Below are positions 1 through 15,020 of a stretch of DNA of 64,000 nucleotides, in pieces (within the stretch, counting starts at the first letter, position 1; the number at the start of each line of letters is the position of its first letter). This stretch comes from an uncultured bacterium (GTDB lineage Bacteria > Zixibacteria > MSB-5A5 > CAIYYT01), in assembly GCA_963726455.1 (NCBI GenBank), contig CAVSCK010000003.1, forward strand, positions 736,001 to 800,000, read 5' to 3'. The notes beneath the pieces were generated by a model. The model saw only the letters and a program-made list of their open reading frames with translations, was not told the origin of the DNA and ran no database searches. The position numbers and the translations under genes were made by a program.

Positions 1-169
1 CGGCCCGAATCCCTGCGCCGCTTGCCCTTAGACATTTCGAGGGAACCCGGCAGACACAACCTATTAGATTGCAGCAGGATACGCTAGGGCTGAATCTCTC
101 TAGGAATCTGCGCCGCCTCGAAAAATCCGCTTGACCATTGCAACCCCATCCATATCTTTGCGTACAATG

Positions 170-196
170 TTAGCACTCGACTGAGAGGAGTGCTAA
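170..196. promoter_or_regulatory. CIRCE element (HrcA operator) upstream of groES
   Basis: Perfect TTAGCACTC-N9-GAGTGCTAA, just downstream of a TTGACC(131-136)/TATCTT(153-158) promoter-like pair. Confidence 0.97.
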
Positions 197-258
197 CAGA
201 AGTTAAAAGGCAGAATAGCTACATACATGCAATCAGTAACTAATAAACACAAGGAGCG

Positions 259-555
259 TTGTTAATGAACATCCAACCGTTGCAAGACCGCGTTCTGGTC
301 AAGCCGCTTGAAACCGGTGAGATGAAGAAAGGCGGAATCATTATCCCCGATACCGCCAAGGAAAAACCGCAGGAAGCAGAAGTGATCGCCATCGGTCCGG
401 GACGCGTCTCGGATGACGGCAAGCTGATCCCCGTCAACGTCAAAGTCGGCGACAAGATTCTGTTCGGCAAATACTCCGGCACCGAAGTTACGGTGGACGG
501 AATCGAATACCTGTTTATGCGCGAGTCCGATATTCTCGCGGTGCTCAAGAAGTAA
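259..555 (+). CDS. groES: co-chaperonin GroES
   Basis: [39 protein letters not shown]; start may be ATG 265. Confidence 0.98.
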
Positions 556-565
556 GGAGAGGTGA

Positions 566-2205
<1,640 letters not shown>

Positions 2206-2227
2206 ACCAAATTGGTTTGACAATCAG

Positions 2228-2256
2228 ACGGCGGGTCGCAAGACCCGCCGTTTTTT
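2228..2256 (+). terminator. intrinsic terminator of groESL
   Basis: ACGGCGGGTC-GCAA-GACCCGCCGT followed by a T run. Confidence 0.9.
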
Positions 2257-2330
2257 GCTTCCTGTAGAATGATCTCTGAGGCCCTGAATAAGAGTCGGGC
2301 TTCAGTTATTTCGCGGCCAATTGAGGTTAC

Positions 2331-2834
2331 CTACTCACGCGCCTTTGGATACGCAGTAATAAAAAGTGGGAGAATGACGTTTCGAATCCCCATTCTTGTC
2401 ATGGTAGATTGAATAAACTCTCTAAAGTAAGGGTTCACAATTAAGGGAAAACTCGTGCCCTTATAGATTTTGATGAACTCCTCATTTACGGTAATCTCGG
2501 AAGTATAGGTTACTGAGAATGTGGCACTCATGTCCGAGATCACCCGCGTCTCATACTTAATAGAGACACCCATTTCTGCCCGAATCTCGAAAACCTTCGC
2601 ATCATTGCCCAAATTGCTTTCCACAACCACATCGTCGATTGAAACGTTTAAGGGGCTCTTACCAGATACCGGAGCTAGAACCGTGGGTTTGCGAATGCCT
2701 CTGAACTTTACCAATGCCACTTCAACAGGTCGAATACCGGAGAGCATACTCGAATATGCTTCAGGGGTCATTGAGAATTTTGAGCGGTTCTCCGTAGGAT
2801 TGTTAGCTGACTTCTCTATTTTGGATCTTGCCAT
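2331..2834 (-). CDS. SecB-like chaperone (TAC-type)
   Basis: 167 aa, beta-rich core then FPLIVNPYFREFIQSTMTRMGIRNVILP, matching the SecB P-Y-x-R-E...M-G...L-P helix; third gene of a TA operon. Confidence 0.75.
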   Translation of the reverse strand: MARSKIEKSANNPTENRSKFSMTPEAYSSMLSGIRPVEVALVKFRGIRKPTVLAPVSGKSPLNVSIDDVVVESNLGNDAKVFEIRAEMGVSIKYETRVISDMSATFSVTYTSEITVNEEFIKIYKGTSFPLIVNPYFREFIQSTMTRMGIRNVILPLFITAYPKARE

Positions 2835-2842
2835 AGCAGACC

Positions 2843-3340
2843 TCAGGCCGCTTCAGGATATGGATGTTTTGGATTACCGCCACACTTTGCGCCCGGTACA
2901 GGCGGTTTTGCTTGGTCACCGTAGTGAAGACCTGTGGTTGTCGGGGAGGTTTCAATTGCGATTGGCAATGCCACGGCATTCCACAGCGCAGCAACCACAA
3001 ATGAGTTGAGGCTCTGATTTTCCAGTTTGGCTCTCTGAGAGAGCTTTTTGTGAAGCTCCGGTCCTGTTCGAACTACGAATTTTCCACTGTAGTCGTAATC
3101 TTCTTCTTCTGGCAACGGGATTGTGACACCGTTCTCATAGTAATATGTTAGGAGTTCGTCTTTGACCTCCGCCAGCATTTCGAGCGCCTGATCGACGGTC
3201 TCTCCTGTGCCATAACAGGACAGCTTCCCAAGTTCAGCTATGAAAGCCGTGTACCTGTCTTCATCGTCATCATGGTGCTTCTCGAGCACGACTTTATACT
3301 CGAGAGCCTTGTATTGCTCCAATGTGAGTTTGTCTTTCAC
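2843..3340 (-). CDS. hicB: HicB-family antitoxin with RHH domain and C-terminal extension
   Basis: YTAFIAELGKLSCYGTGETVDQALEML...IPLP (HicB domain), YSGKFVVRTGPELHKKL...SLNSFV (RHH), then ~40 extra aa ending EAA; GTG overlaps the upstream stop. Confidence 0.88.
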   Translation of the reverse strand: MKDKLTLEQYKALEYKVVLEKHHDDDEDRYTAFIAELGKLSCYGTGETVDQALEMLAEVKDELLTYYYENGVTIPLPEEEDYDYSGKFVVRTGPELHKKLSQRAKLENQSLNSFVVAALWNAVALPIAIETSPTTTGLHYGDQAKPPVPGAKCGGNPKHPYPEAA

Positions 3341-3678
3341 ACTTCCTCCGTTATCGTCTGAATAATCAGTCGGACTGGCCGATCCAAATACCTTCTAATG
3401 TTTTGGACACGAACCATCCTATTATGCTTGCTCTTCCCTCCTATTAATGCCACCTGAAATATCCCCAGAGGCCCGTGGCATCCGTGATTGACCAATGCAT
3501 CATGCCTGTACGAAAGATGCGATCCGCCTTTAGCGGGCAATTGCAGGCATCCAAGTCTCTCTCTCAGATATTTATCAAGATCCCCGAAATTCTTCTCAGG
3601 TGGCTTGCTAGTAAGAAATACTTCCCATTCCTCCGTTAGGGCTTCTCGCTCATTGACATTATCGTCACAGAAAAGCAC
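3337..3678 (-). CDS. HicA-like mRNA interferase toxin
   Basis: FGDLDKYLRERLG...KGGSHLSYRH carries the HicA G-S-H catalytic motif; translationally coupled to hicB. Confidence 0.7.
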   Translation of the reverse strand: MLFCDDNVNEREALTEEWEVFLTSKPPEKNFGDLDKYLRERLGCLQLPAKGGSHLSYRHDALVNHGCHGPLGIFQVALIGGKSKHNRMVRVQNIRRYLDRPVRLIIQTITEEV

Positions 3679-3688
3679 TTGAATTAGT

Positions 3689-3726
3689 GTAGTACTAAAT
3701 ATAGTACTACTTCCTTTCTACGTCAA
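3689..3726 (-). promoter_or_regulatory. sigma70 promoter of the TAC operon with overlapping inverted-repeat operator
   Basis: Minus strand TTGACG-17nt-TATATT; perfect IR GTAGTACTA-AATA-TAGTACTAC (3689-3710) covers the -10 box. Confidence 0.8.
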
Positions 3727-4146
3727 TAATATTGTTATTTCTGGTAAAAACATATGATTTCCCGCCGCATTCGAGTGTTCTTGAGCTCCAACGCTTCAGT
3801 TAAACTCTAGTTTAAGGTCAAGAATTATGTTCGACAAGTCAAGACTTTATTGGTTGGTTTCTTGTCTTTACGGATATGTTCTTGATTTCAAATAACTTAC
3901 GAGCACCTCCTTTTCTGTTCGTTCGAAGCTTCAACACTCTGATTCCACTTCTCCCGACCGTTTGGTCGCCGAATAGGACGTTCAGCCCCCCATATATACA
4001 GCCAGTCAGTACTCTTCCTCCTTGTCGTAAACCAGAATTTCCGCCAGTCGTCTACCTAAGTGCATACCGCCTAGCGAATTAGCTGGCCCATACTTTGGCC
4101 GATAGAGTCAATTGTAGAATATAACGGTCTTTGCAATACGCCGCTG

Positions 4147-4272
4147 CTGGGTTCCAACCAGCCGGTAGCCCAGCTATCCCCTTGATCCCATTGGTTTGCA
4201 TCCTACCCAAAGCCTTGCGGCAGGTGGGTTTTTCATTCTCTGGGTACAGACTCACCAGATGGGTTACAGATT
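4147..4272 (+). repeat. modular intergenic repeat, copy 1 (degenerate motif A + hairpin C + motif B)
   Basis: AGCCGGTAGCCCAGCTATCCCCTTGATC; TTTGCATCCTACCC...GGTGGGTTTTTC; GGTACAGACTCACCAGATGGGTTACAGATT (4243-4272). Confidence 0.85.
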
Positions 4273-4389
4273 AGGCTCATCACATAGGTAACAGTTATAC
4301 TGCGTCGCGAATAAGGAGGTGACGCAGTGTGCCGAAGAGGTTTTGATGTCCAAGCTATCAACAAGCCAATCTTGCAGATACAGCGACAA

Positions 4390-5502
4390 CTACTTGATAT
4401 GGTAGCGGACTAAACGGGATACAGTGCAGGACGCATCATAATTCCAAAGGGCGTGAGAATACCTCTCGATAATGCCCACGCCTTTCGCGAAAATCAAACA
4501 ATCACCAAAGGAAGGGGAGAGCCCATGCAGTGTGCATCTTTCATACGTTGGGTAGAATCTACCGGCTGGAACAGAGTCGACACGGTCCGGCCATACGAGA
4601 GGCACAACGATTCCATCCCCATAGAAGATGCTGTCATTGCGAGCGCCGACATAACTTCCGTCGGACAGTAACCATCGAATGATACCGCCACTCTGGCTGC
4701 CAGACCGTACGTAAATGCTGTCTATTCGCACTTGGGTTGAGTCCCACAAGTACCACCACGTGGGAATGCCAGTGATGTTGGTGTCGTAGTGGCAGGTTTC
4801 ATAGACCCAGTAGTTGCCAACGGCCAGCGGCCAGTTTTCGCTCGGTCTGTAGGGCACGACAGTAATCCTGACCGATTCCGTGTCAGCCAGTTCACCATCG
4901 GAAGCCACAAACACAGGTTCGAAAACACCAAGTTGGGTTGAATCAGGAGTGAAGCTGAAGACACCGGTGCCATTGTTATCGGGGACGAAACTTGCATTCA
5001 CCGGCAGATCATAGGCTGCGACGCTGGGGAAGATGTAGTCGCTGTCATCAGCCATGATCATAAAGCTCAGTGCGATCGTGGTAACGCATGGTTGTGGCGC
5101 TATGGGGAGAAGAACGGGGCGATGTTCGTTTGCCTGAGTTACAGATATGATAGAGACGATCTCGCTGTCAGCGAGTTCACCGTCGGAGGCGTAGAATAAG
5201 ACAGAGTACGTCCCAACCTGACCAGTATCTGGAACGAACATAAAGCGGCCCTTGTTATCGCCCGCGGATGTGAAACTGGAGTGGTCGGGAAGGTTTTGGG
5301 CGGAGAGGGAAGGGATTGTACCGTCTTGATCGTTGGCAGTAACATCGAATCTTAGAGTGTCGCCGGCTCGGACGGCTTGGGGGCCAATCTCTTCCAAGAT
5401 TGGGGCGTGGTTCGACTTCGTCGGTCTTGACGGATTATCCGCGCATTGACACAGCAGAGCCAAGCCCGCCAGAACCAGCGTTAGTCTTAAGAAATGACGC
5501 AT
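4390..5502 (-). CDS. lipoprotein with tandem Ig-like (He_PIG/cadherin-like) domains
   Basis: Lipobox LLCQC; two NHAP/HRPV...ASDGELAD modules; RBS GGAGG upstream of ATG 5502. Confidence 0.75.
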   Translation of the reverse strand: MRHFLRLTLVLAGLALLCQCADNPSRPTKSNHAPILEEIGPQAVRAGDTLRFDVTANDQDGTIPSLSAQNLPDHSSFTSAGDNKGRFMFVPDTGQVGTYSVLFYASDGELADSEIVSIISVTQANEHRPVLLPIAPQPCVTTIALSFMIMADDSDYIFPSVAAYDLPVNASFVPDNNGTGVFSFTPDSTQLGVFEPVFVASDGELADTESVRITVVPYRPSENWPLAVGNYWVYETCHYDTNITGIPTWWYLWDSTQVRIDSIYVRSGSQSGGIIRWLLSDGSYVGARNDSIFYGDGIVVPLVWPDRVDSVPAGRFYPTYERCTLHGLSPSFGDCLIFAKGVGIIERYSHALWNYDASCTVSRLVRYHIK

Positions 5503-5522
5503 GAATCGCACCCTCCATACAT

Positions 5523-5551
5523 AATATAGCCAGACTCCGCGATTTTGTCAA
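5523..5551 (-). promoter_or_regulatory. sigma70 promoter of the 4390-5502 gene
   Basis: Minus strand TTGACA-17nt-TATATT. Confidence 0.7.
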
Positions 5552-5563
5552 GCAGGTTCGTCA

Positions 5564-5685
5564 AGCCGGTAGCCCCGCAATCTTCGTGATCGTCTCGAGG
5601 TACAGCCGGTAGCCCCGCAATCTTCGTGATCGTCTTGATTCGTAATTTGTAGCCCACCCAAAGGCTTCCGACGGGTGGGTTTTTC
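5564..5685 (+). repeat. modular intergenic repeat, copy 2 (tandem motif A x2 + hairpin C)
   Basis: Identical 32-mers AGCCGGTAGCCCCGCAATCTTCGTGATCGTCT at 5564 and 5604; GTAG-CCCACCC...GGGTGGG-TTTTTC at 5649-5685. Confidence 0.9.
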
Positions 5686-5723
5686 TTTGATCGATGAATG
5701 GTCGGCGCAGGCAAGAAAGTTCC

Positions 5724-5786
5724 GTAGGTCGAAACCCCGTACGGTAGCACGTCCGCACCTACGACCGCTTCTCCGTGGGTTTCGAC
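5724..5786 (+). repeat. GTAG-led REP-like palindrome
   Basis: GTAG-GTCGAAACCC...GGGTTTCGAC. Confidence 0.55.
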
Positions 5787-5895
5787 ACTTCCCTTCTTGT
5801 TTTCTGCTTGACATCGACTCGCCGATTATCCCATATTAGACATAAATGTCAGCGCTTACAGCGCAAAACGCCTCTACGAAAGGCAGGTTGAAATC

Positions 5896-6279
5896 GTGAA
5901 GAGAGCTATCGCCGCCCTCATTGTGTCGTGTTTTCTGTTCATTAATTGCGCCGCAATTTTCAAAGGCACGTCCAGCAAGCTGGATCTTTCCTCTGAACCA
6001 GACGGCGCGAGTGTATACGTGAATGGAAACTCGTGGGGCAAGACGCCAATCAAGTTGAAGCTTGAATCCAAGAAGACCTATGTGCTCGAGTTCAAGAAAG
6101 AGGGTTACGAAACGAAGACCTTCAACATCACTAACAGCGTTGGCGCCGGTTGGATTATTCTCGATATTCTCGGTGGCCTATTCCCAATCGTGATAGACGC
6201 TGCCACAGGAGCTTGGTACGATCTTGACATGGACAATATCAATGCAATCCTTGAGCAGCAAGCACAGACTCAACAGTAG
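5896..6279 (+). CDS. PEGA-domain lipoprotein
   Basis: INCAAIFKG, SSEPDGASVYVNG..GKTP..L.L...FKKEGY, hydrophobic segment then DAATGAWY. Confidence 0.85.
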   Translation: MKRAIAALIVSCFLFINCAAIFKGTSSKLDLSSEPDGASVYVNGNSWGKTPIKLKLESKKTYVLEFKKEGYETKTFNITNSVGAGWIILDILGGLFPIVIDAATGAWYDLDMDNINAILEQQAQTQQ

Positions 6280-6280
6280 C

Positions 6281-6425
6281 TTGGGTTCCGTCAGGTCTTG
6301 CGCCGCGACGATCTCTGCGTCCCTGTGTACCATTTGTTTCCGCGGCGTGTGACCTGACGGCCGAGCCGGTAGCCCCGCGATCTTCGTGATCGTCTGGTAC
6401 AGACTCATCAGAAGGGTTACAGATT
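6281..6425 (+). repeat. modular intergenic repeat, copy 3 (long hairpin + motif A + motif B)
   Basis: CCGTCAGGTC..CGCCGCG / CGCGGCG..GACCTGACGG hairpin 6288-6360; motif A 6364-6395; motif B 6396-6425. Confidence 0.9.
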
Positions 6426-6438
6426 GGCTGCAAATGAG

Positions 6439-6897
6439 ATGAAAACGATGAAAACAACAAATCACATAATGGCCCTCGCGCTCTTGCTCATCGTTGGTTG
6501 TAGCGAGCGACCCATCGGCCGAGCAGAACTCATCGGAACGTGGACGATGAGAGCTTCCTGTACAGAATTCTTGCCGGAAACGTTTCACGCCAAGCCTCCG
6601 CATCTGACTCTTAAAGGTGATGGCACCTTCTTGGCTGAAGACTTACCTGCTTCAATATTTGGTGCATCGTTTGAGCTCGAGAATTCGCATGTTGGTGGCG
6701 CAGGCAAGTGGCTTATGCGAGAAGTTGACGGATTCCAGAGACTTGAATTGGAGTTTCGCTCATCAGACTCTCCGCTGCTGAAGAGAATGCCATTCCTGGT
6801 TCGCCTGTGGTCGGAGCGGGAGAGCGGCAAAGCTGTAATCTACTTCTATCATGGCGATATCGATGGTAGCCCTCGGATCTATCTTGACCGAGGATAG
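6439..6897 (+). CDS. hypothetical lipoprotein
   Basis: Lipobox LIVGC followed by ELIGTW...L.LKGDGTF, a lipocalin-like start. Confidence 0.7.
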   Translation: MKTMKTTNHIMALALLLIVGCSERPIGRAELIGTWTMRASCTEFLPETFHAKPPHLTLKGDGTFLAEDLPASIFGASFELENSHVGGAGKWLMREVDGFQRLELEFRSSDSPLLKRMPFLVRLWSERESGKAVIYFYHGDIDGSPRIYLDRG

Positions 6898-6968
6898 TCG
6901 AAGAGGTCAAGAGCGCTCATGCGAATGTGACAGGTTCAGTGACACGCCTCAGCCAGGTTTCTGTATTT

Positions 6969-7041
6969 TTGGGTTCCGTCAGCCGGTAGCACCGCCCTCT
7001 TCGTGATCTTCGGTACAGACTCATCAGATGGGTTACAGATT
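6969..7041 (+). repeat. modular intergenic repeat, copy 4 (leader + motif A variant + motif B)
   Basis: TTGGGTTCCGTC-AGCCGGTAGCACCGCCCTCTTCGTGATCTTC-GGTACAGACTCATCAGATGGGTTACAGATT. Confidence 0.9.
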
Positions 7042-7088
7042 GGATTGGGTTTGGCGCTTCGCTGCGAACCCTGACCTACCCGACTAGG

Positions 7089-7587
7089 TCAATGTCCCGC
7101 TTTTTGGTCAATCGAAATTACGAATTCGCATCGCTTGTCCCCTTGAATGATCGAACCGACAAGACTCACTGCAACGGGAAATCCGAGCACCTGCTCGAAC
7201 AACTGTTTCAGCCAGCCGCAACTGCAGTGGCAGAAGGTGTTACTGAATGGTTCTCGGGTTTGGCTGACGCTGCCGCAGTAGCACTTGTCGTAAACTGCAA
7301 TAATTTGCTTGCCCTGTCGTGACAAGTGACCGCCGCCAATATCCGTTCTCATTCATTTTTGACAGCCAGTCATCGATGGTTGCTGATTCTCGATAGAGAC
7401 GTGCGGCCTTCTCAATGACCGATTGCCCCAGACAATTGCAGTCCTGCATGATGCGAAGACAGTCCTCACGCGAGCACTGTTGTTCGATCAACTCGATGGC
7501 TTCGCGGATAAGCGCCGCCTTTAGGTGTGGCTTTCTCTCCTGTTCGATTTCTGCTGCGATTCTGCTGCAGTTTGCGAACTGACTCAT
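7089..7587 (-). CDS. Cys-rich DUF6144/V4R-like protein, frameshifted near 7341
   Basis: ORFs 7240-7596 and 7089-7352 join into ...CNC...YDKCYC...FCHCSCGW...SIIQGDKRCEF by removing one base. Confidence 0.65.
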
Positions 7588-7739
7588 TCCCCTCAAGATA
7601 CGGGGATGCCGCTTGTCGAAATTTGTCGATGCTGAAAGGCATACATCTCTAAGTTAGCCGGCCTCAAAGGAATAGTCAATATTACCCGTTCCGTCAGGTC
7701 AGGAGGTCAGGTGAACCGGCTGCAAACCCCAACAACAGG

Positions 7740-7850
7740 AAGTGTATAACAATTTAACACTTCGGGAAATCTTGCTAACTCGTTGATTTCTATCACATTG
7801 GTGGCATACTCAAGAGTGGTTCGACAGGTCGATGTAGCAATAACCGACAT
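7740..7850. promoter_or_regulatory. two TGT-N11-ACA enhancer boxes plus an IHF-like site upstream of a PEP-CTERM gene
   Basis: AAGTGT-N11-ACACTT (7740-7762), ATGT-N11-ACAT (7832-7850), AATCAACGAGTTA on minus strand (7776-7788). Confidence 0.65.
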
Positions 7851-7935
7851 TCGTGGCTAATTCACACTGAGTAAGCGGTTTTTTTCTGGCGGATAACCCA
7901 TTCATAATGAATTGGTTGGGACTACTCAAGCTGCT

Positions 7936-7951
7936 TGGCACGCAGATTGAT
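7936..7951 (+). promoter_or_regulatory. sigma54 (-24/-12) promoter
   Basis: TGGCACG-CAGA-TTGAT versus consensus TGGCACG-N4-TTGC. Confidence 0.7.
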
Positions 7952-8025
7952 ACGATAGAGATGGATTGATGTAGTCCTTAACTATTTAGGCAGAAAAGAT
8001 TAACTCAATTTTCATCGGAGGAATA

Positions 8026-8670
8026 ATGACAAAACTCTTCAAGGCGATGCTCGCTGTGGGAATGGTTCTGGCGCTTGCCGGCCCCAGCTTTGCATGGAAT
8101 CTTAACTTCGAGTGGGGCTTGGGCCAAGACGGTCAGAACGTTGCTGCCGGAGTTCCGGGCCTGCAGTTCACCACTACGGACGGTCTCGATTGGAAGTATG
8201 GCGACGCGACCACCAACAACTACAACGTAAGAAATCAGCTTGGTCAGACGTGGGGCGGTGCCTGGTTTTACATGGAAGATTATGTATTTACCTGGTTAGG
8301 CACAACTCAGGGTTCCGGCAGAATCGATTTCCTCAATCAGGACGGAACGTTCTTCAGAACCGGATATTGTTCCGCCAGCAATTTCTATTTGGAAGCCTAC
8401 GATGCCGGCGGCAATCTGCTTGATTCGCAATTTGGTCTGTCCAACTACACGCTGAACGATCAGACTCCAGGTATCGGTCTTGATTACCTGCAGGTAAGCG
8501 GCACCAACATTGCCTACGTGCTGATGCATGACACAGGTAACCAATGGCTTGCCGACAATATGTCGGGCGATGCCACTGGCGTAAATGTTCCGGGCGTCCC
8601 TGAACCGGGTACTTTGGTGCTCCTTGGTCTGGGTCTGGTTGCGATGGGGATCTTTGTCAGACGTTTCTAG
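8026..8670 (+). CDS. PEP-CTERM sorting domain protein
   Basis: Signal peptide; C-terminus VPEPGTLVLLGLGLVAMGIFVRRF. Confidence 0.93.
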   Translation: MTKLFKAMLAVGMVLALAGPSFAWNLNFEWGLGQDGQNVAAGVPGLQFTTTDGLDWKYGDATTNNYNVRNQLGQTWGGAWFYMEDYVFTWLGTTQGSGRIDFLNQDGTFFRTGYCSASNFYLEAYDAGGNLLDSQFGLSNYTLNDQTPGIGLDYLQVSGTNIAYVLMHDTGNQWLADNMSGDATGVNVPGVPEPGTLVLLGLGLVAMGIFVRRF

Positions 8671-8702
8671 TAGTTACATCTAGTCTCTAGATTCAAAATT
8701 CT

Positions 8703-8730
8703 AAGGCAGCCGATTGGCTGCCTTTTTTTT
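8703..8730 (+). terminator. intrinsic terminator
   Basis: AAGGCAGCC-GATT-GGCTGCCTT plus T run. Confidence 0.9.
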
Positions 8731-9034
8731 GGTCCGTTCCGGCGGCTCTTTCACTCTGCGACACAGTATTCTCTCAACTCAGCCAACCAGTTCTTTGTGA
8801 TTGTAGATCGAAACCCCGTTCGATGCGCTTCTGCATCCTCGACAAGGTCACAATGGATTTCGAGATTTCCCTTAATGCTCTCTGCCACAGGGCATCTCGG
8901 CTTGCATATCCACTGAACCTCCTGCATGGCGCGCTCGAGCACTGCAGACATTTGTACTGCAACAGCATCGCAACAAAAAGAGCCCCGGTATAACCAGGGC
9001 TCTTCCACTCAGTAAGATAAATCGAAGTCTGTGA

Positions 9035-9709
9035 TTAGTTGCGGAATCTGATCACGAGCTCACCTGCCAACAAGCCCAAGCATATCAGAGTTAATGATGC
9101 CGGTTCAGGCACCACATTGCCATCCGGGCCGCTGAGTTCAAAAGCCAAATCACCACCATTTACATTCGCCCAATAGCTGGGATCCTGTTGCATAGACTGG
9201 TGCTGCCAGTCGGGGCTACCACTAACGCCGGATGACTGCGCCCAGAACCAATTCTCACCGTAATTGTGCGCCAAAATACTGAACCAGTATTTGCCTGCAC
9301 CCAAGGTAAAGGGAGTATCAAGGTTCAACGAGTACTGGTAAATATCGCCAATGCTAGCATTCGTTTCGAAGTATGTCTCGCCGGCATTCCCGGACAGAAA
9401 CTGGTCGTAGACTTTGGTCATCGGTTTACCAGTAGATTCATCGTTCGACCAAATCTCGAAGGTGAAACCCGTGAGGTTGTTCGTGGCCCCACCGTAGCTG
9501 CCCCACCAGTGGAAGTCGGTGATACTGCCGCTGCCGCCCCAATCATAGTCGGCGAACGACTGATGGTACGGTCCGAAGCTATTGTACCAGAAAGAGGATA
9601 AGGCGTTGGTGCTGGAAGAACTGTAAGGGTTGGAGAAAATGACGGTCGCATTGGCAGCGCCGGATGCGAGCAGAATGACTAGGAATGCGAAAGTTATGAT
9701 TGTCTTCAA
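9035..9709 (-). CDS. PEP-CTERM sorting domain protein
   Basis: Signal peptide; C-terminus VPEPASLTLICLGLLAGELVIRFRN. Confidence 0.88.
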   Translation of the reverse strand: MKTIITFAFLVILLASGAANATVIFSNPYSSSSTNALSSFWYNSFGPYHQSFADYDWGGSGSITDFHWWGSYGGATNNLTGFTFEIWSNDESTGKPMTKVYDQFLSGNAGETYFETNASIGDIYQYSLNLDTPFTLGAGKYWFSILAHNYGENWFWAQSSGVSGSPDWQHQSMQQDPSYWANVNGGDLAFELSGPDGNVVPEPASLTLICLGLLAGELVIRFRN

Positions 9710-10127
9710 GTGATTCCTCCTGTGAATCAGTCAAATGCTAGGGAACATCAGTAGGGTCAAGTACTCGGAGCAAAACCCCTGCCACCACTACCTGAGTTGC
9801 GCCAACATTTTCTATCGCCGTTAATGCATTGATAGTTAATGTGTTGCAGGAATGATCCAGCATTAAATCTGGAGATTTATTCCGACATTCAGGACGCAAA
9901 TAGCCCGATTTCCGGACGACTATTGGCCGAGCATTCCGGACTATCCGGTTAATAAATTGTCCTGCAATAAAATACGGCAGGTCGCAGATTGTCCTGCTTC
10001 TGAACGGTGCGGACCGGCCGGCATCCAAGACCTTGTGCCTGCGGGGCTTGGACATTCTCATTGATTTGATTTGCCCAGCCATCCTCGACTGCCTAACTTT
10101 CCAGTCAATAACGAAAGGCAGGGATCA

Positions 10128-10856
10128 ATGCTCACCGACAAACAAGATGCCTACGGGCATGAAGTCTACGACTACCTTCACGGCATACCAAGTCGCGAAA
10201 TCGTCGAACGTGACGACGGTTACTTCGATATCAGTTCTGGCGCACCGGCATACTTTGCTCCGTTCAAACACTGGTTAACTTATGAGAAGAAGGCGATTCG
10301 TTATGCCCGCGGCCGGGTACTGGACATCGGTTGCGGCGCCGGCAGAGTGCTGTTGCATTTGCAGGAGCGCGGGCACGAATGTGTCGGGATCGATATCTCA
10401 CCGTTGGCGATCAAGACCTGCAAAGAACGCGGCGCCAAGGATGCCCGAATAATGCCAATCACTCAGATCAGTCAGCGCCTGGGACAGTTCGATTCGATTG
10501 TGATGTTCGGAAACAATTTCGGCCTGATGGGAGGACGCCGTCGCGGCAAATGGCTGCTGCGGAAATTGTATCTCATCACCACACCAGGTGCGCGAATAAT
10601 TGCGGCGAGCGCGGATCCCTACCCGACGAAGGAGCCCGATCACCTCTTGTACCAAAAACTTAACCGCAAGCGCGGACGTATGGGCGGACAAATCCGTATC
10701 AGGATCAGATACAAGACGTATGTAACGCCCTGGTTCGACTACCTGCTGGCGTCACGCGAGGAAATTATCGACTTGCTTGCAGGCACGGGCTGGCAGGTGA
10801 AGACCTTCATTGACTCGGGAGCGTATTATTACGCTGCGATAATTGAGAAGAAGTAA
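10128..10856 (+). CDS. class I SAM-dependent methyltransferase
   Basis: VLDIGCGAG, GIDISP, FDSIVMFGNNFG. Confidence 0.9.
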   Translation: MLTDKQDAYGHEVYDYLHGIPSREIVERDDGYFDISSGAPAYFAPFKHWLTYEKKAIRYARGRVLDIGCGAGRVLLHLQERGHECVGIDISPLAIKTCKERGAKDARIMPITQISQRLGQFDSIVMFGNNFGLMGGRRRGKWLLRKLYLITTPGARIIAASADPYPTKEPDHLLYQKLNRKRGRMGGQIRIRIRYKTYVTPWFDYLLASREEIIDLLAGTGWQVKTFIDSGAYYYAAIIEKK

Positions 10857-10858
10857 CA

Positions 10859-11707
10859 TTGAGTTTCGACCTGCCGAACTCGTGTAATAAGGATATGACC
10901 AGGAAGACCGATACTGACGCCAAAACGCGTCGTGTACTCGAGCGCATGGGTGGCTCGCTGAAGGCGTTCTCAACGAAGGCAGCCGATTACTCCGCGTCGA
11001 GACCTGACTATCCCGCAGCGTTTTTCGATACGCTGGTTTCAGATTGTGGATTAAAGACCCATGCAGTGATAGCCGACCTTGGCGCGGGCACCGGATTGCT
11101 GACCCTGGGATTCCTGCAAAGGGGGTATTCCGTAGTTGCCGTTGAGCCGAATGTTGCGATGCGGGAAACTTGCGACAAATTCCTGGGTAAGTTCCCCGGA
11201 TACCGAAGTATCGAGGGCACTGCCGAGTCTAACCCACTTGAGAATTCCTCCGTTGATCTGGTAACTGCGGCCCAGGCATTCCATTGGTTCGATATCGAGA
11301 AGGCAAGAACCGAGTGTTTGCGGATACTCCGGCCGCTGGGCAGTGTCGCCATAGTTTGGAACGACCGGGCTCGTGAGGATCCGCTGCAAGAATCGCTCGA
11401 CAAGATATTTGCCGAATTTGGCGGTGCCAGAAGAGCGGCGTTAGCTGCTCGCGAGAAGGTCAATCGACTACTGGAATTTTTCGGAACGGCGGTTCCGCGC
11501 GAGTATTCGTGGCCCCACCAGCACCTGCTCGGCGAGGAAGGTCTGATCAGCCTGGCTTTTTCCCGTTCCTATATGCCCGGGAGGGAATCGGCCGCAGGTA
11601 AGAAGATCACGTCACGAGTGCGACGCCTGTTCGAACAATTCTCTGAGAACTACCAAGTAACAGTCCGATACAGGACAATCGCGATGACTGGCCGGCCGGT
11701 TAAATAG
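10859..11707 (+). CDS. class I SAM-dependent methyltransferase
   Basis: RPDYP, ADLGAGTG, AVEPN, AAQAFHWF; true start likely downstream. Confidence 0.9.
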   Translation: MSFDLPNSCNKDMTRKTDTDAKTRRVLERMGGSLKAFSTKAADYSASRPDYPAAFFDTLVSDCGLKTHAVIADLGAGTGLLTLGFLQRGYSVVAVEPNVAMRETCDKFLGKFPGYRSIEGTAESNPLENSSVDLVTAAQAFHWFDIEKARTECLRILRPLGSVAIVWNDRAREDPLQESLDKIFAEFGGARRAALAAREKVNRLLEFFGTAVPREYSWPHQHLLGEEGLISLAFSRSYMPGRESAAGKKITSRVRRLFEQFSENYQVTVRYRTIAMTGRPVK

Positions 11708-11852
11708 GTCGCGATTCTTCGCGAAGTGATGCCGGAAACCTTGCAGGTCTGAACTCCTTACGAATTACTGCTGACGCAGGGTTACGCCGGAGAAACGAAG
11801 CGGTAACGAAAGTTTGGCCCACAATCACAATTTGACGCGACCCAACTTCAAC

Positions 11853-12347
11853 TCACACCCCGCTTTTCACCGTCTCTTTGCCATCGTAGGCCCGCTGCAG
11901 GCCTTTGATGTCCAGCTTGTTCATCTGCATCATCGCCAGGAAGACTCGCTTCGACTTTTCCGCGTCTTTGTCTTCCATCATTTCGCCCAAGATGGTAGGG
12001 ACGATGTTCCACGACACGCCGTACTTGTCCAGCAACCATCCACAGCCAAGCGTCTTACCCCCGGCCGACAACTTCTCCCAGTATTCATCGACTTCTTCCT
12101 GGGTCTTGCAGTTGACGAAGAACGACGGCGCCGGTGTGTAGTTGATTTGCGAACCGGCGTTGAGGGCGTAGAATTCCTCGCCGTCGAGTTGGAATGTCAC
12201 AAACAGAACAGAACCTTTCGGCCCGGGACCGACCTCGGTGTGGCGCTGGATTTTTTCAATCTTTGAGTTCTTGAATATCGAGGTGTAGAATTGCGCCGCT
12301 TCTTCGGCCTCGTCATTAAACAACATAAACGGGACGATTTTCCGCAT
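11853..12347 (-). CDS. VOC/PhnB family (3-demethylubiquinone-9 3-methyltransferase-like) protein
   Basis: KIVPFMLF...AEEAAQFY...ALNAG...CGWLLDKYGVSW. Confidence 0.92.
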   Translation of the reverse strand: MRKIVPFMLFNDEAEEAAQFYTSIFKNSKIEKIQRHTEVGPGPKGSVLFVTFQLDGEEFYALNAGSQINYTPAPSFFVNCKTQEEVDEYWEKLSAGGKTLGCGWLLDKYGVSWNIVPTILGEMMEDKDAEKSKRVFLAMMQMNKLDIKGLQRAYDGKETVKSGV

Positions 12348-12462
12348 AACGACTCCTCTCGGTGAGATTCGATTTCCGTGCGAACCGTGCGCATCGTCAA
12401 AAGCGGGCGCCGGCTTTAAGTAGAGTACGAGGAAACAGGAGAGATTTGCGTCACATTTGACT

Positions 12463-12894
12463 TTAGTATTGCCAAAAAACACGGGCGTAGAAGCTCTGAC
12501 GCCCGTCAACGAAAGAATCACTCAGGACCAGCGTGTCGCCGGCCAGGAGTTCGATAATCTCATAGGGAGAATTCGGTTTGGGAATGCTGTCAAAGACAAT
12601 GACTTCGGCCACCGTGTGGCGCCCGATATCGCGGGATCCCGTCCAATATTTTCCGCGAGATACCTCCGTTCCTTCGCTGTAATTGACGAAGTTACATCGC
12701 CAGTCCAATAACAAAACCCTGGAAGGGCCAAACACACCTACCTGACTGCAGCCACCAGTCCAACCACCGCATGTACGCACCCACTTCCAATATCCTGTAT
12801 ATGACGTATTACACGAATCGAACGTGATTTCGTCAGCATGGACGGCGATTGCGGCCACCATGACCAAAATTCCGAGCAACGCTGCGCGCCACAT
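12463..12894 (-). CDS. hypothetical secreted protein
   Basis: Signal peptide, RBS GGAGG, WKWVRTCGGWTG and DTLVLSD..VDG..S.Y.R motifs. Confidence 0.65.
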   Translation of the reverse strand: MWRAALLGILVMVAAIAVHADEITFDSCNTSYTGYWKWVRTCGGWTGGCSQVGVFGPSRVLLLDWRCNFVNYSEGTEVSRGKYWTGSRDIGRHTVAEVIVFDSIPKPNSPYEIIELLAGDTLVLSDSFVDGRQSFYARVFWQY

Positions 12895-13015
12895 AATAGA
12901 CCTCCCGTTGATATAGATCCCGAGTCACCACTTGCGGAATGTGCTTATTCGGCCTGCCGAGGTGCACCAGGAATGAAGTCTTACAATCTGTTTGACAGCG
13001 CGCCCCAGAATTGTC

Positions 13016-13393
13016 CTACGTAGTAATTTGACTGGATGCCGGATCATCCCCCGGAGATCGCGGCGGCAAGTAACCGTCGGTCAAGTGTCGTGGTGGATAT
13101 CCGGTCGGCGGCCAGCGCAAAACCAGGCACGCGAAACCGCATTCCCCATCTTCGTCGCCATCTTCATTACCTTCATCGTCGTCACCCTCGGCGACTCCGA
13201 CAGTTGAGGGAGTTCCCTGACCCGATCTGTGTCTTGGCGACCTGTTGGTCGCTACCTTGTGGCAGGATCGGCATCGTCTGGGATCGTCCTTGTAGCCCTT
13301 TTCGTTAAAGTACTCTTGCGCCGATGCAGGAAAGACAAACTCCTCTTTACAGTCGACACAAATGAGGATCTTATCCGTAAAACGTCCTTGCAT
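13016..13393 (-). CDS. zinc-ribbon (zf-trcl-like) protein with acidic tail
   Basis: DKILICVDC.EEFVF...QEYF.EKGY..DPRRCRSC. Confidence 0.85.
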   Translation of the reverse strand: MQGRFTDKILICVDCKEEFVFPASAQEYFNEKGYKDDPRRCRSCHKVATNRSPRHRSGQGTPSTVGVAEGDDDEGNEDGDEDGECGFACLVLRWPPTGYPPRHLTDGYLPPRSPGDDPASSQITT

Positions 13394-13618
13394 GAAACTG
13401 GCCCTCCCTTCCCTGAGATGAAGCCCGCAAGTAGTTCGGTTGACTTGTGCGAAATATCACAATCTCAACGACATACGCAAGCGTTTTCTTGTCCGGAACC
13501 GGCAGTCGGCAGTACTTTCCCATGCTTCATTCGCGGTCACTTTTCCGCGGCTGCAACTTCCGGAGGGATTTTCCGTAGAGAAAACTAATCGCTGATAGAA
13601 ACAACCGCGGAGGTTCAG

Positions 13619-14233
13619 ATGAGAGCATTTAGCATACTAATTTTGGCCGGCATGCTGACGCTGCCGACGGTGGCGTTTGGGCATACCGTCCATGTCGACC
13701 GTTCGAAAGTGCACCGGCACGAGAGCACGATTAAGCACGATCATAAGGACAACAACCCTACGTGTATCTTTGGTGACGAAGTCCGCAACTTTAGCTTCAA
13801 GCACAATACCGTCATCATTACTTACTCTGAAGGTGTTCCCGAGGAACTTGAGATCAATGATCGGCACGAGCTCTATGTCGATGGCAAACGAGTGAATCTG
13901 AATGGTGACCAACAGAAATTGGTGGGCGAGTTCTACGAAAAGATCAGGGAGCTGATCGACGACGCCAAGGAAGTCGGCCTTGAAGGAGCTGGCGTCGGAC
14001 TGCAAGGAGCCAAGGTCGCCGTCAAAGCCATGGCTGGCGTGTTCGCAATGCTTTGCACCAGCTATACCAGTGACGATTTGGAACGTGACATGGAGCGTGA
14101 GTCGGCCAAGATCGAGCATCGTGCGGCGGAATTGGAAGCCAAAGCGAGCAAGATCGAGGATCGCGCCAACGAGGCCGAACGACTTTACGAAAAGATGGAA
14201 GAGAGTATTCCGGAACTACATCGCGGCATTTAA
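13619..14233 (+). CDS. DUF2884/YggN-like secreted protein
   Basis: Signal peptide; LYVDGKRVNLNGDQQKLV.EFY followed by a coiled coil. Confidence 0.7.
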   Translation: MRAFSILILAGMLTLPTVAFGHTVHVDRSKVHRHESTIKHDHKDNNPTCIFGDEVRNFSFKHNTVIITYSEGVPEELEINDRHELYVDGKRVNLNGDQQKLVGEFYEKIRELIDDAKEVGLEGAGVGLQGAKVAVKAMAGVFAMLCTSYTSDDLERDMERESAKIEHRAAELEAKASKIEDRANEAERLYEKMEESIPELHRGI

Positions 14234-14239
14234 CCTTGC

Positions 14240-14998
14240 ATGAGCGACACAGCAAAACTCAAACTCTACTCCGATCTCGCAGAGTGGTGGCCGCTGTTGT
14301 CATCTCCGGCCGAATACCTGGAAGAAGCTGCGATCTATAAAGATCTTCTGATCTCTGCCTGTGCCATTCCTCCGAAAACCTTGCTCGAATTAGGCAGCGG
14401 CGGAGGCAATAACGCGTCACACCTCAAGAAACATTTCCAAATGACACTGGTTGACCTCTCTGAGAACATGCTCGATGTCAGCCGCAAACTCAATCCCGAG
14501 TGCGAGCACGTTCAGGGAGACATGCGCTCGGTGAGATTGGGGCGCGAGTTTGACGCTGTGTTCGTTCAGGATGCTGTCTCGTACATCGCGACTGAATCAG
14601 ACCTGCAGTCTACGATCCAAACGGTCTGGGTTCATTGCCGCCCGGGAGGCGCTGCCCTGTTTGCACCGGACCGGATTCGCGAGTCCTTCCGAACTACGAC
14701 CGATCACGGCGGTCACGATGCGGCCAACCGCAGTCTTCGATATCTGGAATATGCGTGGGATCCTGATCCCACGGACTCCACCTATATCTCCGACATGGTT
14801 TATCTACTTCGTGATGAGCGAGGACAGATCCGAATCGAATACGATCGCCATGTTCTCGGGCTGTTTTCTCGCGACGTGTGGCTGCGCCTGATTACAAGTG
14901 TCGGCTTCAATGTGCGAGCCGTACCTCTTGTCCACAGCGAAGTCGAGCGCGGATTGCACGAGCTGTTTGTATGCAGCAAGCCACTGGTCACTAAGTGA
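14240..14998 (+). CDS. class I SAM-dependent methyltransferase
   Basis: LLELGSGGGN, VDLS, QGDMR, FDAVF. Confidence 0.9.
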   Translation: MSDTAKLKLYSDLAEWWPLLSSPAEYLEEAAIYKDLLISACAIPPKTLLELGSGGGNNASHLKKHFQMTLVDLSENMLDVSRKLNPECEHVQGDMRSVRLGREFDAVFVQDAVSYIATESDLQSTIQTVWVHCRPGGAALFAPDRIRESFRTTTDHGGHDAANRSLRYLEYAWDPDPTDSTYISDMVYLLRDERGQIRIEYDRHVLGLFSRDVWLRLITSVGFNVRAVPLVHSEVERGLHELFVCSKPLVTK

Positions 14999-15020
14999 AC
15001 TGCTAGTTCGACAGTCGAAG

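Follow-up and report, generated by a model that had tools for sequence, protein, structure and literature searches.

A probable HicAB-class toxin-antitoxin-chaperone operon of a divergent lineage behind groEL in an uncultured member of the Zixibacteria

Directly behind groEL, the genome of an uncultured member of the Zixibacteria carries three tightly coupled genes that raise a simple question: do they form a toxin-antitoxin system with a chaperone of its own, or do they represent an ordinary toxin-antitoxin pair that adjoins an export chaperone? We analyzed a window of 64,000 nucleotides (positions 736,001 to 800,000 of contig CAVSCK010000003.1, assembly GCA_963726455.1), whose numbering is used throughout, and in which the cassette occupies positions 2331-3726. 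We found that it most probably represents a type II toxin-antitoxin-chaperone (TAC) module of the HicAB class. The architecture of the cassette, its homologies, its conservation, its operator box and its terminal motif are demonstrated, and its mechanism is proposed by analogy with characterized TACs.

This kind of system is known and validated, as HicAB-type TACs were catalogued in 2013 (PMC3581621) and one of them was validated in 2016 (PMC5105189); the cassette is a divergent lineage of this HicAB-SecB kind, scattered through one uncultured phylum. An earlier note on this DNA had considered HicAB-type triads to be far less characterized than other TACs, a judgement that proved too severe, since both papers already treat HicB-type TACs, which are thus not unexplored. 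What is new in the lineage is a long HicA that is missed by annotation models, a common operator box, a frequent Ala-Ala end of the antitoxin, and a host phylum in which our search revealed no SecB standing by itself. We could not find any literature on the lineage itself, including Zixibacteria with HicA, and a member may already be listed in an earlier catalogue.

The three genes and their relatives

All three genes lie on the minus strand. The toxin gene (3337-3678) codes for a long HicA-like protein of 113 aa, the antitoxin gene (2843-3340) for a HicB-type protein of 165 aa made of a predicted N-terminal toxin-binding domain, a ribbon-helix-helix (RHH) domain and a C-terminal tail, and the chaperone gene (2331-2834) for a divergent SecB-family protein of 167 aa, of the SecB-TA type. 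The first two start with GTG and the third with ATG. As expected for a TAC, they are co-oriented and closely linked, in the order toxin, antitoxin and SecB-like chaperone. The toxin stop codon TGA (3339-3337) and the antitoxin start codon GTG (3340-3338) overlap in a GTGA (3340-3337), and only 8 bases (2835-2842) separate the antitoxin stop from the chaperone ATG. A GGAGG lies 4 nt ahead of the antitoxin GTG, and a GAGG 7 nt ahead of the chaperone ATG. The toxin likely starts at the GTG at 3678, although this is not certain; its closest relative, a protein of 112 aa with 71% identity, covers 97% of its length, which shows that its first 30 residues belong to the coding region. For each of the three open reading frames (ORFs), another contig carries a full-length relative of the same size, with 69-73% identity, and word-index protein searches returned one such close relative per gene, plus three distant HicBs. 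Given these full-length relatives and the recurrence of the triad, the three ORFs are more than chance.

A profile of the toxin matches 21 of the 285 genomes available for the phylum, corresponding to 19 of the 198 high-quality genomes and 18 of the 130 genera. The cassette toxin is present in none of the three genomes of the same genus, and in one of the 20 other genomes of the same family. Leaving aside the locus studied here, the same gene order recurs at 19 of 20 loci, with toxins of 83-131 aa (longest ORF), HicBs of 155-204 aa and SecB-like proteins of 146-181 aa, and the twentieth locus (L022, E 0.009) contains a 47-aa fragment without the triad. An alignment-based search (A7) recovered six related loci, in records titled Candidatus Zixiibacteriota (two), 'bacterium' (one) and uncultured Ignavibacteria/Ignavibacteriales (three), and another one (A2), run on metagenome and genome contigs, found no relative. 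By tblastn, no match was obtained for the toxin in phages, nor for the chaperone in plasmids, and a search of the ESM Atlas gave no usable match.

The toxin carries the motif KGGSH at residues 50-54, of which G52-S53-H54 lie, like His59, in the HicA core. An exhaustive profile search against 1.84 billion representatives retrieved 18 clusters at E ≤ 0.001, and the toxin family is therefore small. A first AlphaFold2 (AF2) model built from two sequences was unusable (predicted local distance difference test, pLDDT, 49), and the final model was built from 18 sequences (pLDDT 85, predicted TM-score 0.73). It consists of an N-terminal helix (residues 6-23), a second helix (31-41), three strands (54-58, 73-77 and 88-90) and a long C-terminal helix (91-112). 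In a VIA-align scan of this model against 48,161 chains, the HicA chains 1whz_A, 5yrz_D, 6g26_E and 4p78_D rank 2, 3, 4 and 6, with Z 4.4-5.0, a root mean square deviation of 2.2-2.6 Å and 57-63 aligned residues, that is, nearly the whole of the 58-70-residue targets. The entries 5yrz, 6g26 and 4p78 are named as HicAB or toxin-antitoxin complexes, and 1whz is a HicA as well. The weight of the evidence from the modelled fold lies in the clustering of four independent HicA entries at the top of the ranking; at a modest Z, the model agrees with the α-β-β-β-α arrangement of HicA, which resembles that of double-stranded RNA-binding domains.

Profile comparison points in the same direction. When the toxin family was aligned by hhalign with six canonical HicAs from related genomes (E 1.2e-4), KGGSHLSYRH was placed on RGSHRQFHH, and G52-S53-H54 came into register with the invariant G-x-H of the canonical proteins. 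A further histidine, His59, is invariant in the 18 library representatives as well as in the 21 operon-linked toxins. One operon-linked member of the family (L019, toxin profile E 4e-17) is also recognized by the Pfam HicA_toxin model (37.4 bits for a cut-off of 27, E 2.7e-9) and, being a member of both by score, bridges the toxin family to HicA. Pfam HicA reaches little of the family (weak matches in 4/18 library representatives, and matches in 2/21 operon-linked members), PADLOC toxin models match 0/21 operon-linked toxins, and the window toxin itself matches no NCBIfam or PADLOC family. Against PDB sequences, the toxin family profile gave 17 matches at E ≤ 10, with HicA among none of them, and phmmer searches with the three cassette proteins gave 0, 2 irrelevant and 0 matches. 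We read the toxin as a distant, elongated protein of the HicA superfamily that lies beyond the reach of the current Pfam model.

The antitoxin is easier to place. It matches Pfam HicB (PF05534) with E 3.3e-13 and 49.7 bits (cut-off 21) over residues 79-119, which define the extent of its RHH DNA-binding domain (about 2984-3106, minus strand), and PF05534 is matched by 21/21 antitoxins of the family, in which the SGKFVVRT...H...SLNS columns of this domain are conserved. Its N-terminal domain gives weak HicB matches: PF15919 with E 0.18, and, for the family profile, the PDB chains 6hpb_B and 6u0i_A with E 0.08-0.09. PF15919 is found at E ≤ 0.01 in 2/21 family antitoxins, and two homologues (P0007 and P0008) carry it as a precomputed annotation.

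Concerning the third protein, direct matches are weak and all in the same register (Pfam SecB E 0.032, NCBIfam SecB E 0.001, and the PADLOC model PD-T4-9_C, i.e. CmdC, E 1.3e-5), and relatives in 10 genomes score above the Pfam SecB cut-off. The window chaperone has one close relative (69% identity), and the pair aligns by hhalign with the chaperones of related operons over 129 columns (probability 98.1%, E 7.8e-14). Pfam SecB is found at E ≤ 0.1 in 20/21 family chaperones (best E 2.5e-11), and the CmdC model is matched by 17/21. In the PDB, the family profile retrieves E. coli SecB (1qyn, E 1.1e-4, and 5jtl), M. tuberculosis Rv1957 (5mtw_C, E 5.3e-4) and H. influenzae SecB (1fx3, E 0.02), and a family motif PYFRE...RMG aligns on PYARE...SRG of E. 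coli SecB. On this profile evidence we file the protein as a divergent member of the SecB family (SecB-TA). Across the 285 genomes, each of the 15 Pfam SecB matches (E ≤ 0.001) lies on the same contig as a toxin match and within about 1 kb of it; the same search found no free-standing SecB in the phylum, nor did we find a second SecB in the genome of the window. These data support a SecB-like protein dedicated to the operon.

The picture drawn in the earlier note from the letters alone therefore withstands closer analysis: the tight coupling of the genes is exactly as described, the HicA-like toxin with a GGSH motif has its counterpart in the modelled fold and in the alignment with canonical HicA, the HicB-type RHH antitoxin with an extra tail of about 40 aa is confirmed, and the SecB-like nature of the third protein agrees with its family profile and its operon-bound occurrence. 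The inference of a divergent HicAB-type TAC is supported for all three genes.

Operator, antitoxin tail and proposed mechanism

Just upstream of the toxin start lies an inverted repeat (3689-3710) with perfect 9-bp arms and a 4-nt spacer, which we presume to be the HicB operator. It holds a 14-nt palindromic box, TACTATATTTAGTA (3693-3706, minus strand), that is shared by the whole family: with up to three mismatches, it occurs at 20/20 loci, at 319-405 nt ahead of the toxin stop codon and hence shortly before the toxin start, being exact in eight of them and within two mismatches in 19 of the 20. A one-strand scan of the 3.64-Mb genome gave a single site within two mismatches; as the reverse complement of the box differs from the box at two positions, this site is taken to be the operator box itself. 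A sigma-70-like promoter is predicted at 3698-3726 (minus strand), with TTGACG (3726-3721) and TATATT (3703-3698) separated by 17 nt. It is a match to consensus only (10/12), of which the region has three where 2.8 are expected. The -10 element TATATT falls inside the inverted repeat. A conserved palindrome that overlaps a -10-like element, in combination with an RHH strand (SGKFVVRT) that is likewise conserved, would be expected if HicB represses its own operon.

The antitoxin also shows the C-terminal extension beyond the DNA-binding domain that is expected in a TAC. Residues 124-165 (2846-2971, minus strand) form a tail of 42 aa, presumed to be a chaperone addiction (ChAD) region, that ends in Pro-Glu-Ala-Ala-COOH, presumed to be a ClpX degron. 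In the family, the tails extend some 40-60 aa past the RHH domain and cannot be aligned between lineages. According to a preprint on CmdTAC (bioRxiv 10.1101/2024.02.24.581848), recognition of ChADs is mediated by aromatic residues, and the tail of the window antitoxin has a tyrosine at two places (LHYGD and HPYPEAA). The same source describes the terminal Ala-Ala of CmdA as a ClpX degron whose change to Asp-Asp abolishes CmdTA toxicity, reports that M. tuberculosis HigA1 ends in a Val-Ala degron, and presents ClpXP degrons as being masked by the chaperone (bioRxiv 10.1101/2024.02.24.581848). Among the 21 family antitoxins, 11 end in Ala-Ala, two in Val-Ala and one in Ser-Ala, while Ala-Ala ends make up 15 of 2384 long ORFs (0.63%) in the genome background; the corresponding binomial P of 2e-19 overstates the enrichment, because the 21 antitoxins are related. 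The host has a short transfer-messenger RNA tag, GNYAIAA (gene at 1264149-1264514 of genome contig C4), and its clpP and clpX genes are adjacent.

Taken by analogy with characterized TACs, these elements suggest the following mechanism. The hicA-like, hicB and secB-like genes would be transcribed from one promoter as an operon and coupled in translation. The toxin, with its HicA fold, would be a ribonuclease (RNase), presumably ribosome-independent, relying on the GSH histidine, on the invariant His59 or on both. HicB would neutralize the toxin through its N-terminal domain, and repress the operon through its RHH domain at the palindrome overlapping the -10 element. Its 42-residue tail, with an Ala-Ala end like that of the host ssrA tag, would make it a substrate of ClpXP unless held by the SecB-like chaperone. 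Once the chaperone is occupied or depleted, the tail would be exposed, HicB degraded and the toxin freed, and translation would stop. A structural protein of a phage, or a sudden load of unfolded proteins, might act as the trigger. RNase activity, neutralization and repression by HicB, masking of a ClpXP-sensitive tail and release upon titration of the chaperone are thus all inferred for this cassette.

Alternatives and characterized TACs

Several findings weigh against a HicAB-class TAC. The window toxin finds nothing in Pfam even at E ≤ 1, for which reason we file it as a distant lineage of the HicA superfamily and not as a member of PF07927, the Pfam HicA family, whose gathering score it does not reach. 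The Z-scores of its model tie with that of an unrelated helical protein (5a7d_L, Z 5.0), Foldseek, run with the final model on the PDB, returned no match at E ≤ 0.001 (best 0.1, to unrelated proteins), and the hhalign probability between the toxin family and canonical HicA is only 54.5%. The window chaperone scores 14.6 bits against Pfam SecB (PF02556), below the cut-off of 26 bits, and the antitoxin tail has no recognizable conserved ChAD motif. The neighbours of the cassette, in the window and in relatives, are for the most part ordinary genes and give no hint of phage defence or of a mobile element, and a role in phage defence or as a sensor of proteotoxic stress finds no support here. Since the only groEL of the genome contains indels, small sequence errors may occur elsewhere, and ORF calls need caution. 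Lastly, only five of the 21 operon-linked toxins, among them the one in the window, have the canonical GSH histidine (His54), and the chemistry of the toxin family may differ from that of classical HicA.

This last point bears on an alternative in which the first gene does not encode a HicA-type RNase, but a protein with a HicA-like core and another activity or target, or an adaptor. The extra helices at both ends of the toxin would fit such a function, as would the fact that most family members escape Pfam HicA and all escape PADLOC. The 16 operon-linked toxins that lack the GSH histidine have one instead at the position of Ala77 of the window toxin, so that none of the 21 has both histidines or neither; the split is less clean in the library, where 14 of the 18 representatives possess a single one of the two, one possesses both and three lack both. 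Should the modelled strands 54-58 and 73-77 form a hairpin, residues 54 and 77 would be paired across it. The window toxin nevertheless has a G-S-H and a His59 that line up with canonical HicA, its fold matches are HicA toxins, its gene order and HicB partner are those of HicAB, and one member of the family is a bona fide Pfam HicA, all of which makes the alternative an unlikely one.

Alternatively, an ordinary two-gene HicAB might stand beside a housekeeping export SecB without any functional link. The export chaperones of E. coli and H. influenzae are indeed among the closest solved profile relatives of the third protein, but every Pfam SecB match in the 285 genomes falls inside a triad and none stands alone, the chaperone gene is only 8 nt away from hicB, and the antitoxins of the family carry tails that pass well beyond the RHH domain. 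Moreover, 264 of the 285 genomes have no match to the toxin family and 270 have no Pfam SecB match, which argues that the SecB-like protein is not a housekeeping one. As all Pfam SecB matches occur within triads, we reject this explanation, which we hold to be extremely improbable. That the cassette is the decaying or inactive remnant of a horizontal acquisition appears quite improbable as well: its three frames are intact and of the same length as their 69-73% identical relatives, its promoter-operator box is exact to the family consensus, and the residues of the catalytic motif, of the RHH domain and of the C-terminal SecB motif are kept, even if its patchy distribution in the genus and family, its atypical GC content and the frameshifts in other genes of the assembly would be in line with decay.

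As a HicAB-class TAC, the cassette can be compared with systems that have been characterized. HicB, always with an RHH domain, is among the antitoxin families linked to SecB-like chaperones by Sala et al. (2013, PMC3581621). Bordes et al. (2016, PMC5105189) include a HicAB-type system of Methylomonas methanica MC09, Mmet-TAC, as one of four functional TACs tested in E. coli, composed of HicA (Metme_2813), HicB (Metme_2812) and a SecB-TA chaperone; there, the cognate chaperone controlled Mmet HicAB in E. coli more efficiently than a non-cognate one, and ChADs were transferable. Mmet-TAC resembles the present cassette in having a HicA-type toxin, a HicB with RHH, a C-terminal ChAD of about 42 aa (126 bp cloned) and a SecB-like chaperone in one operon. 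It differs in the size of the cloned hicAB region, 773 nt as opposed to 842 nt here (2837-3678). Given this smaller region, and seven codons in the toxin primer that resemble the N-terminus of canonical short HicAs, the Mmet toxin is probably a classical short HicA and not the long form.

The M. tuberculosis TAC HigB1-HigA1-SecB-TA (Rv1955-Rv1957), as presented in PMC6377645 and PMC5105189, shares with our cassette the order toxin, antitoxin, chaperone, a dedicated SecB-like protein, and an antitoxin ChAD ending in an aliphatic-Ala ClpXP degron. It differs by its RelE-like toxin HigB and its helix-turn-helix antitoxin HigA, and the ChAD sequences are unrelated. To these likenesses can be added the match of the present chaperone family profile to Rv1957 reported above.

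With classical HicAB (6g26, 4p78 and 5yrz), the cassette has in common the core fold of the toxin, the GSH motif, a HicB with RHH and the position of hicA upstream of hicB. In contrast, the present toxin has about 25 additional N-terminal residues that form a helix, as well as a longer C-terminal helix, its antitoxin has the 42-aa tail, and a third gene, for the chaperone, is present. HigBAC of E. coli is an anti-phage TAC, whose HigB is a RelE-like RNase, whereas the present toxin is HicA-like. The E. coli anti-phage system CmdTAC (PD-T4-9), according to its description (bioRxiv 10.1101/2024.02.24.581848), has an antitoxin that also ends in Ala-Ala, and its CmdC is the nearest PADLOC model for our chaperone, but its toxin CmdT is an mRNA ADP-ribosyltransferase and not HicA-like. 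We rejected membership in CmdTAC/PD-T4-9, as none of the 21 toxins matches PADLOC models and only the chaperone resembles CmdC.

The site behind groEL and what the lineage offers

The earlier note had also placed the cassette, described as more AT-rich than groEL, at the edge of an island behind groESL. The difference in composition is real, with a GC content of 46.3% for 2331-3726, 57.4% for groEL and 53.5 ± 2.1% for the genome, and only 0.23% of 5207 windows of equal length in the 3.64-Mb genome are this low. A low-GC segment of about 2.1 kb (2254-4389) comprises the operon along with 660 bp of non-coding DNA on its upstream side (3727-4389, GC 45.9%). It begins right after the intrinsic terminator of groEL (2226-2253, plus strand), which is also a boundary of synteny: alignments to five of five relatives (three of the same genus with 91-94% identity, two of the same family with about 81%) end at 2206-2253. 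The island thus stands as an edge of synteny behind the groEL terminator, but not as a recognizable defence or mobile island. No synteny resumed within the window when the contigs of three relatives were extended, scans for tRNAs and Rfam families (bases 1-15000 and 1-12000) found none, and 10 neighbouring ORFs of the window contain no integrase, phage or defence domain.

The genes that follow the groEL terminator differ in each of the five relatives. In one of these five (G016), a further member of the TAC family occupies the same place behind groEL and is likewise convergent to it; identity between its proteins and those of the window is no more than about 24-28%, and there is no nucleotide similarity past groEL. 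The site 3' of groEL is therefore a variable insertion hot spot that has been used twice by TACs of different lineages.

The groEL gene itself (572-2205) is split over three frames by single-base insertions with respect to two same-genus relatives, a C at 956 and a G at 1848, and tblastn revealed no other groEL in the genome. These frameshifts are most likely consensus errors of the assembly; a groEL pseudogene is unlikely in a genome rated 100% complete. A genome-wide PF07927 search gave a single match, at a separate locus on contig C4 (L025, 774937-775050). This is a canonical HicA (Pfam E 2.2e-11) that covers only model positions 19-58, with a HicB-like gene upstream; its N-terminal part lies in another frame, likely because of a frameshift or an assembly indel.

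The neighbours of the operon in the window code for Ig-like, PEGA and PEP-CTERM secreted proteins and for methyltransferases. A cluster of secreted or surface proteins (4390-5511, 5896-6279, 8026-8670 and 9035-9709) comprises a Big_9/cadherin-like Ig protein, a PEGA protein and two PEP-CTERM proteins, one of which has a DUF7901. Downstream of the operon, the spaces between genes contain a recurring composite repeat, built of modules of 35, 43 and 32 nt, at 4160-4274, 5564-5688, 6364-6427 and 6981-7043. One of its modules contains a GC-rich hairpin followed by a T run, and when two of the copies were searched by blastn in the genome, 25 matches (E ≤ 1e-5) were obtained, spread over four contigs. 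The repeat represents a family similar to repetitive extragenic palindromes (REP) or miniature inverted-repeat transposable elements (MITE).

The neighbours of related operons are a short-chain dehydrogenase/reductase (SDR), an ACT-domain protein, a methyltransferase, an ABC transporter, a cupin and one DDE transposase similar to those of insertion sequences (IS). The latter, which is weakly matched by IS240/IS1, adjoins the upstream end of one of the family's TAC operons (genome G180, locus L010, 1970-2809), and is the only mobile-element gene adjoining the scanned loci (10 ORFs from 10 loci). At several loci of the taxonomic family f5 (L009, L012, L015, L016 and L019), the gene that converges on the chaperone gene seems to code for one and the same ACT-domain protein, a likeness judged by eye on the first 50-60 residues, with the Pfam ACT domain confirmed only in L009. 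If true, this shared neighbour would be a second conserved insertion site, specific to a lineage.

A more far-reaching reading can be entertained, about which we remain doubtful. The operons may form a distinct lineage of long HicAs that are obligately linked to a chaperone and have a relocated histidine, in which the SecB-like protein is a pure sensor without export role and the link to groESL reflects proteotoxic stress. If this joint reading were true, the presumed catalytic histidine would sit either at the GSH position (5/21) or on a neighbouring β-strand (16/21). As to the groESL link, the cassette lies convergent to groESL, within a hot spot, in two genomes of one family; should the link hold, heat-induced read-through from groEL or chaperone overload could couple release of the toxin to proteotoxic stress.

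The HicAB-class lineage described here does not alter the picture of what TACs are. It does stretch the recognizable HicA fold to a long form, and because Pfam and PADLOC models miss this long HicA, annotation pipelines for toxin-antitoxin and defence systems overlook these operons. With one operator box and very different tails and chaperones, some 20 natural operons provide material on how the specificity between ChAD and chaperone evolves, and the same set may be used to ask whether a terminal Ala-Ala is a general ClpXP timer. Finally, a phylum in which no free-standing SecB was found offers a setting to ask what a TAC chaperone senses when it has no function in export.

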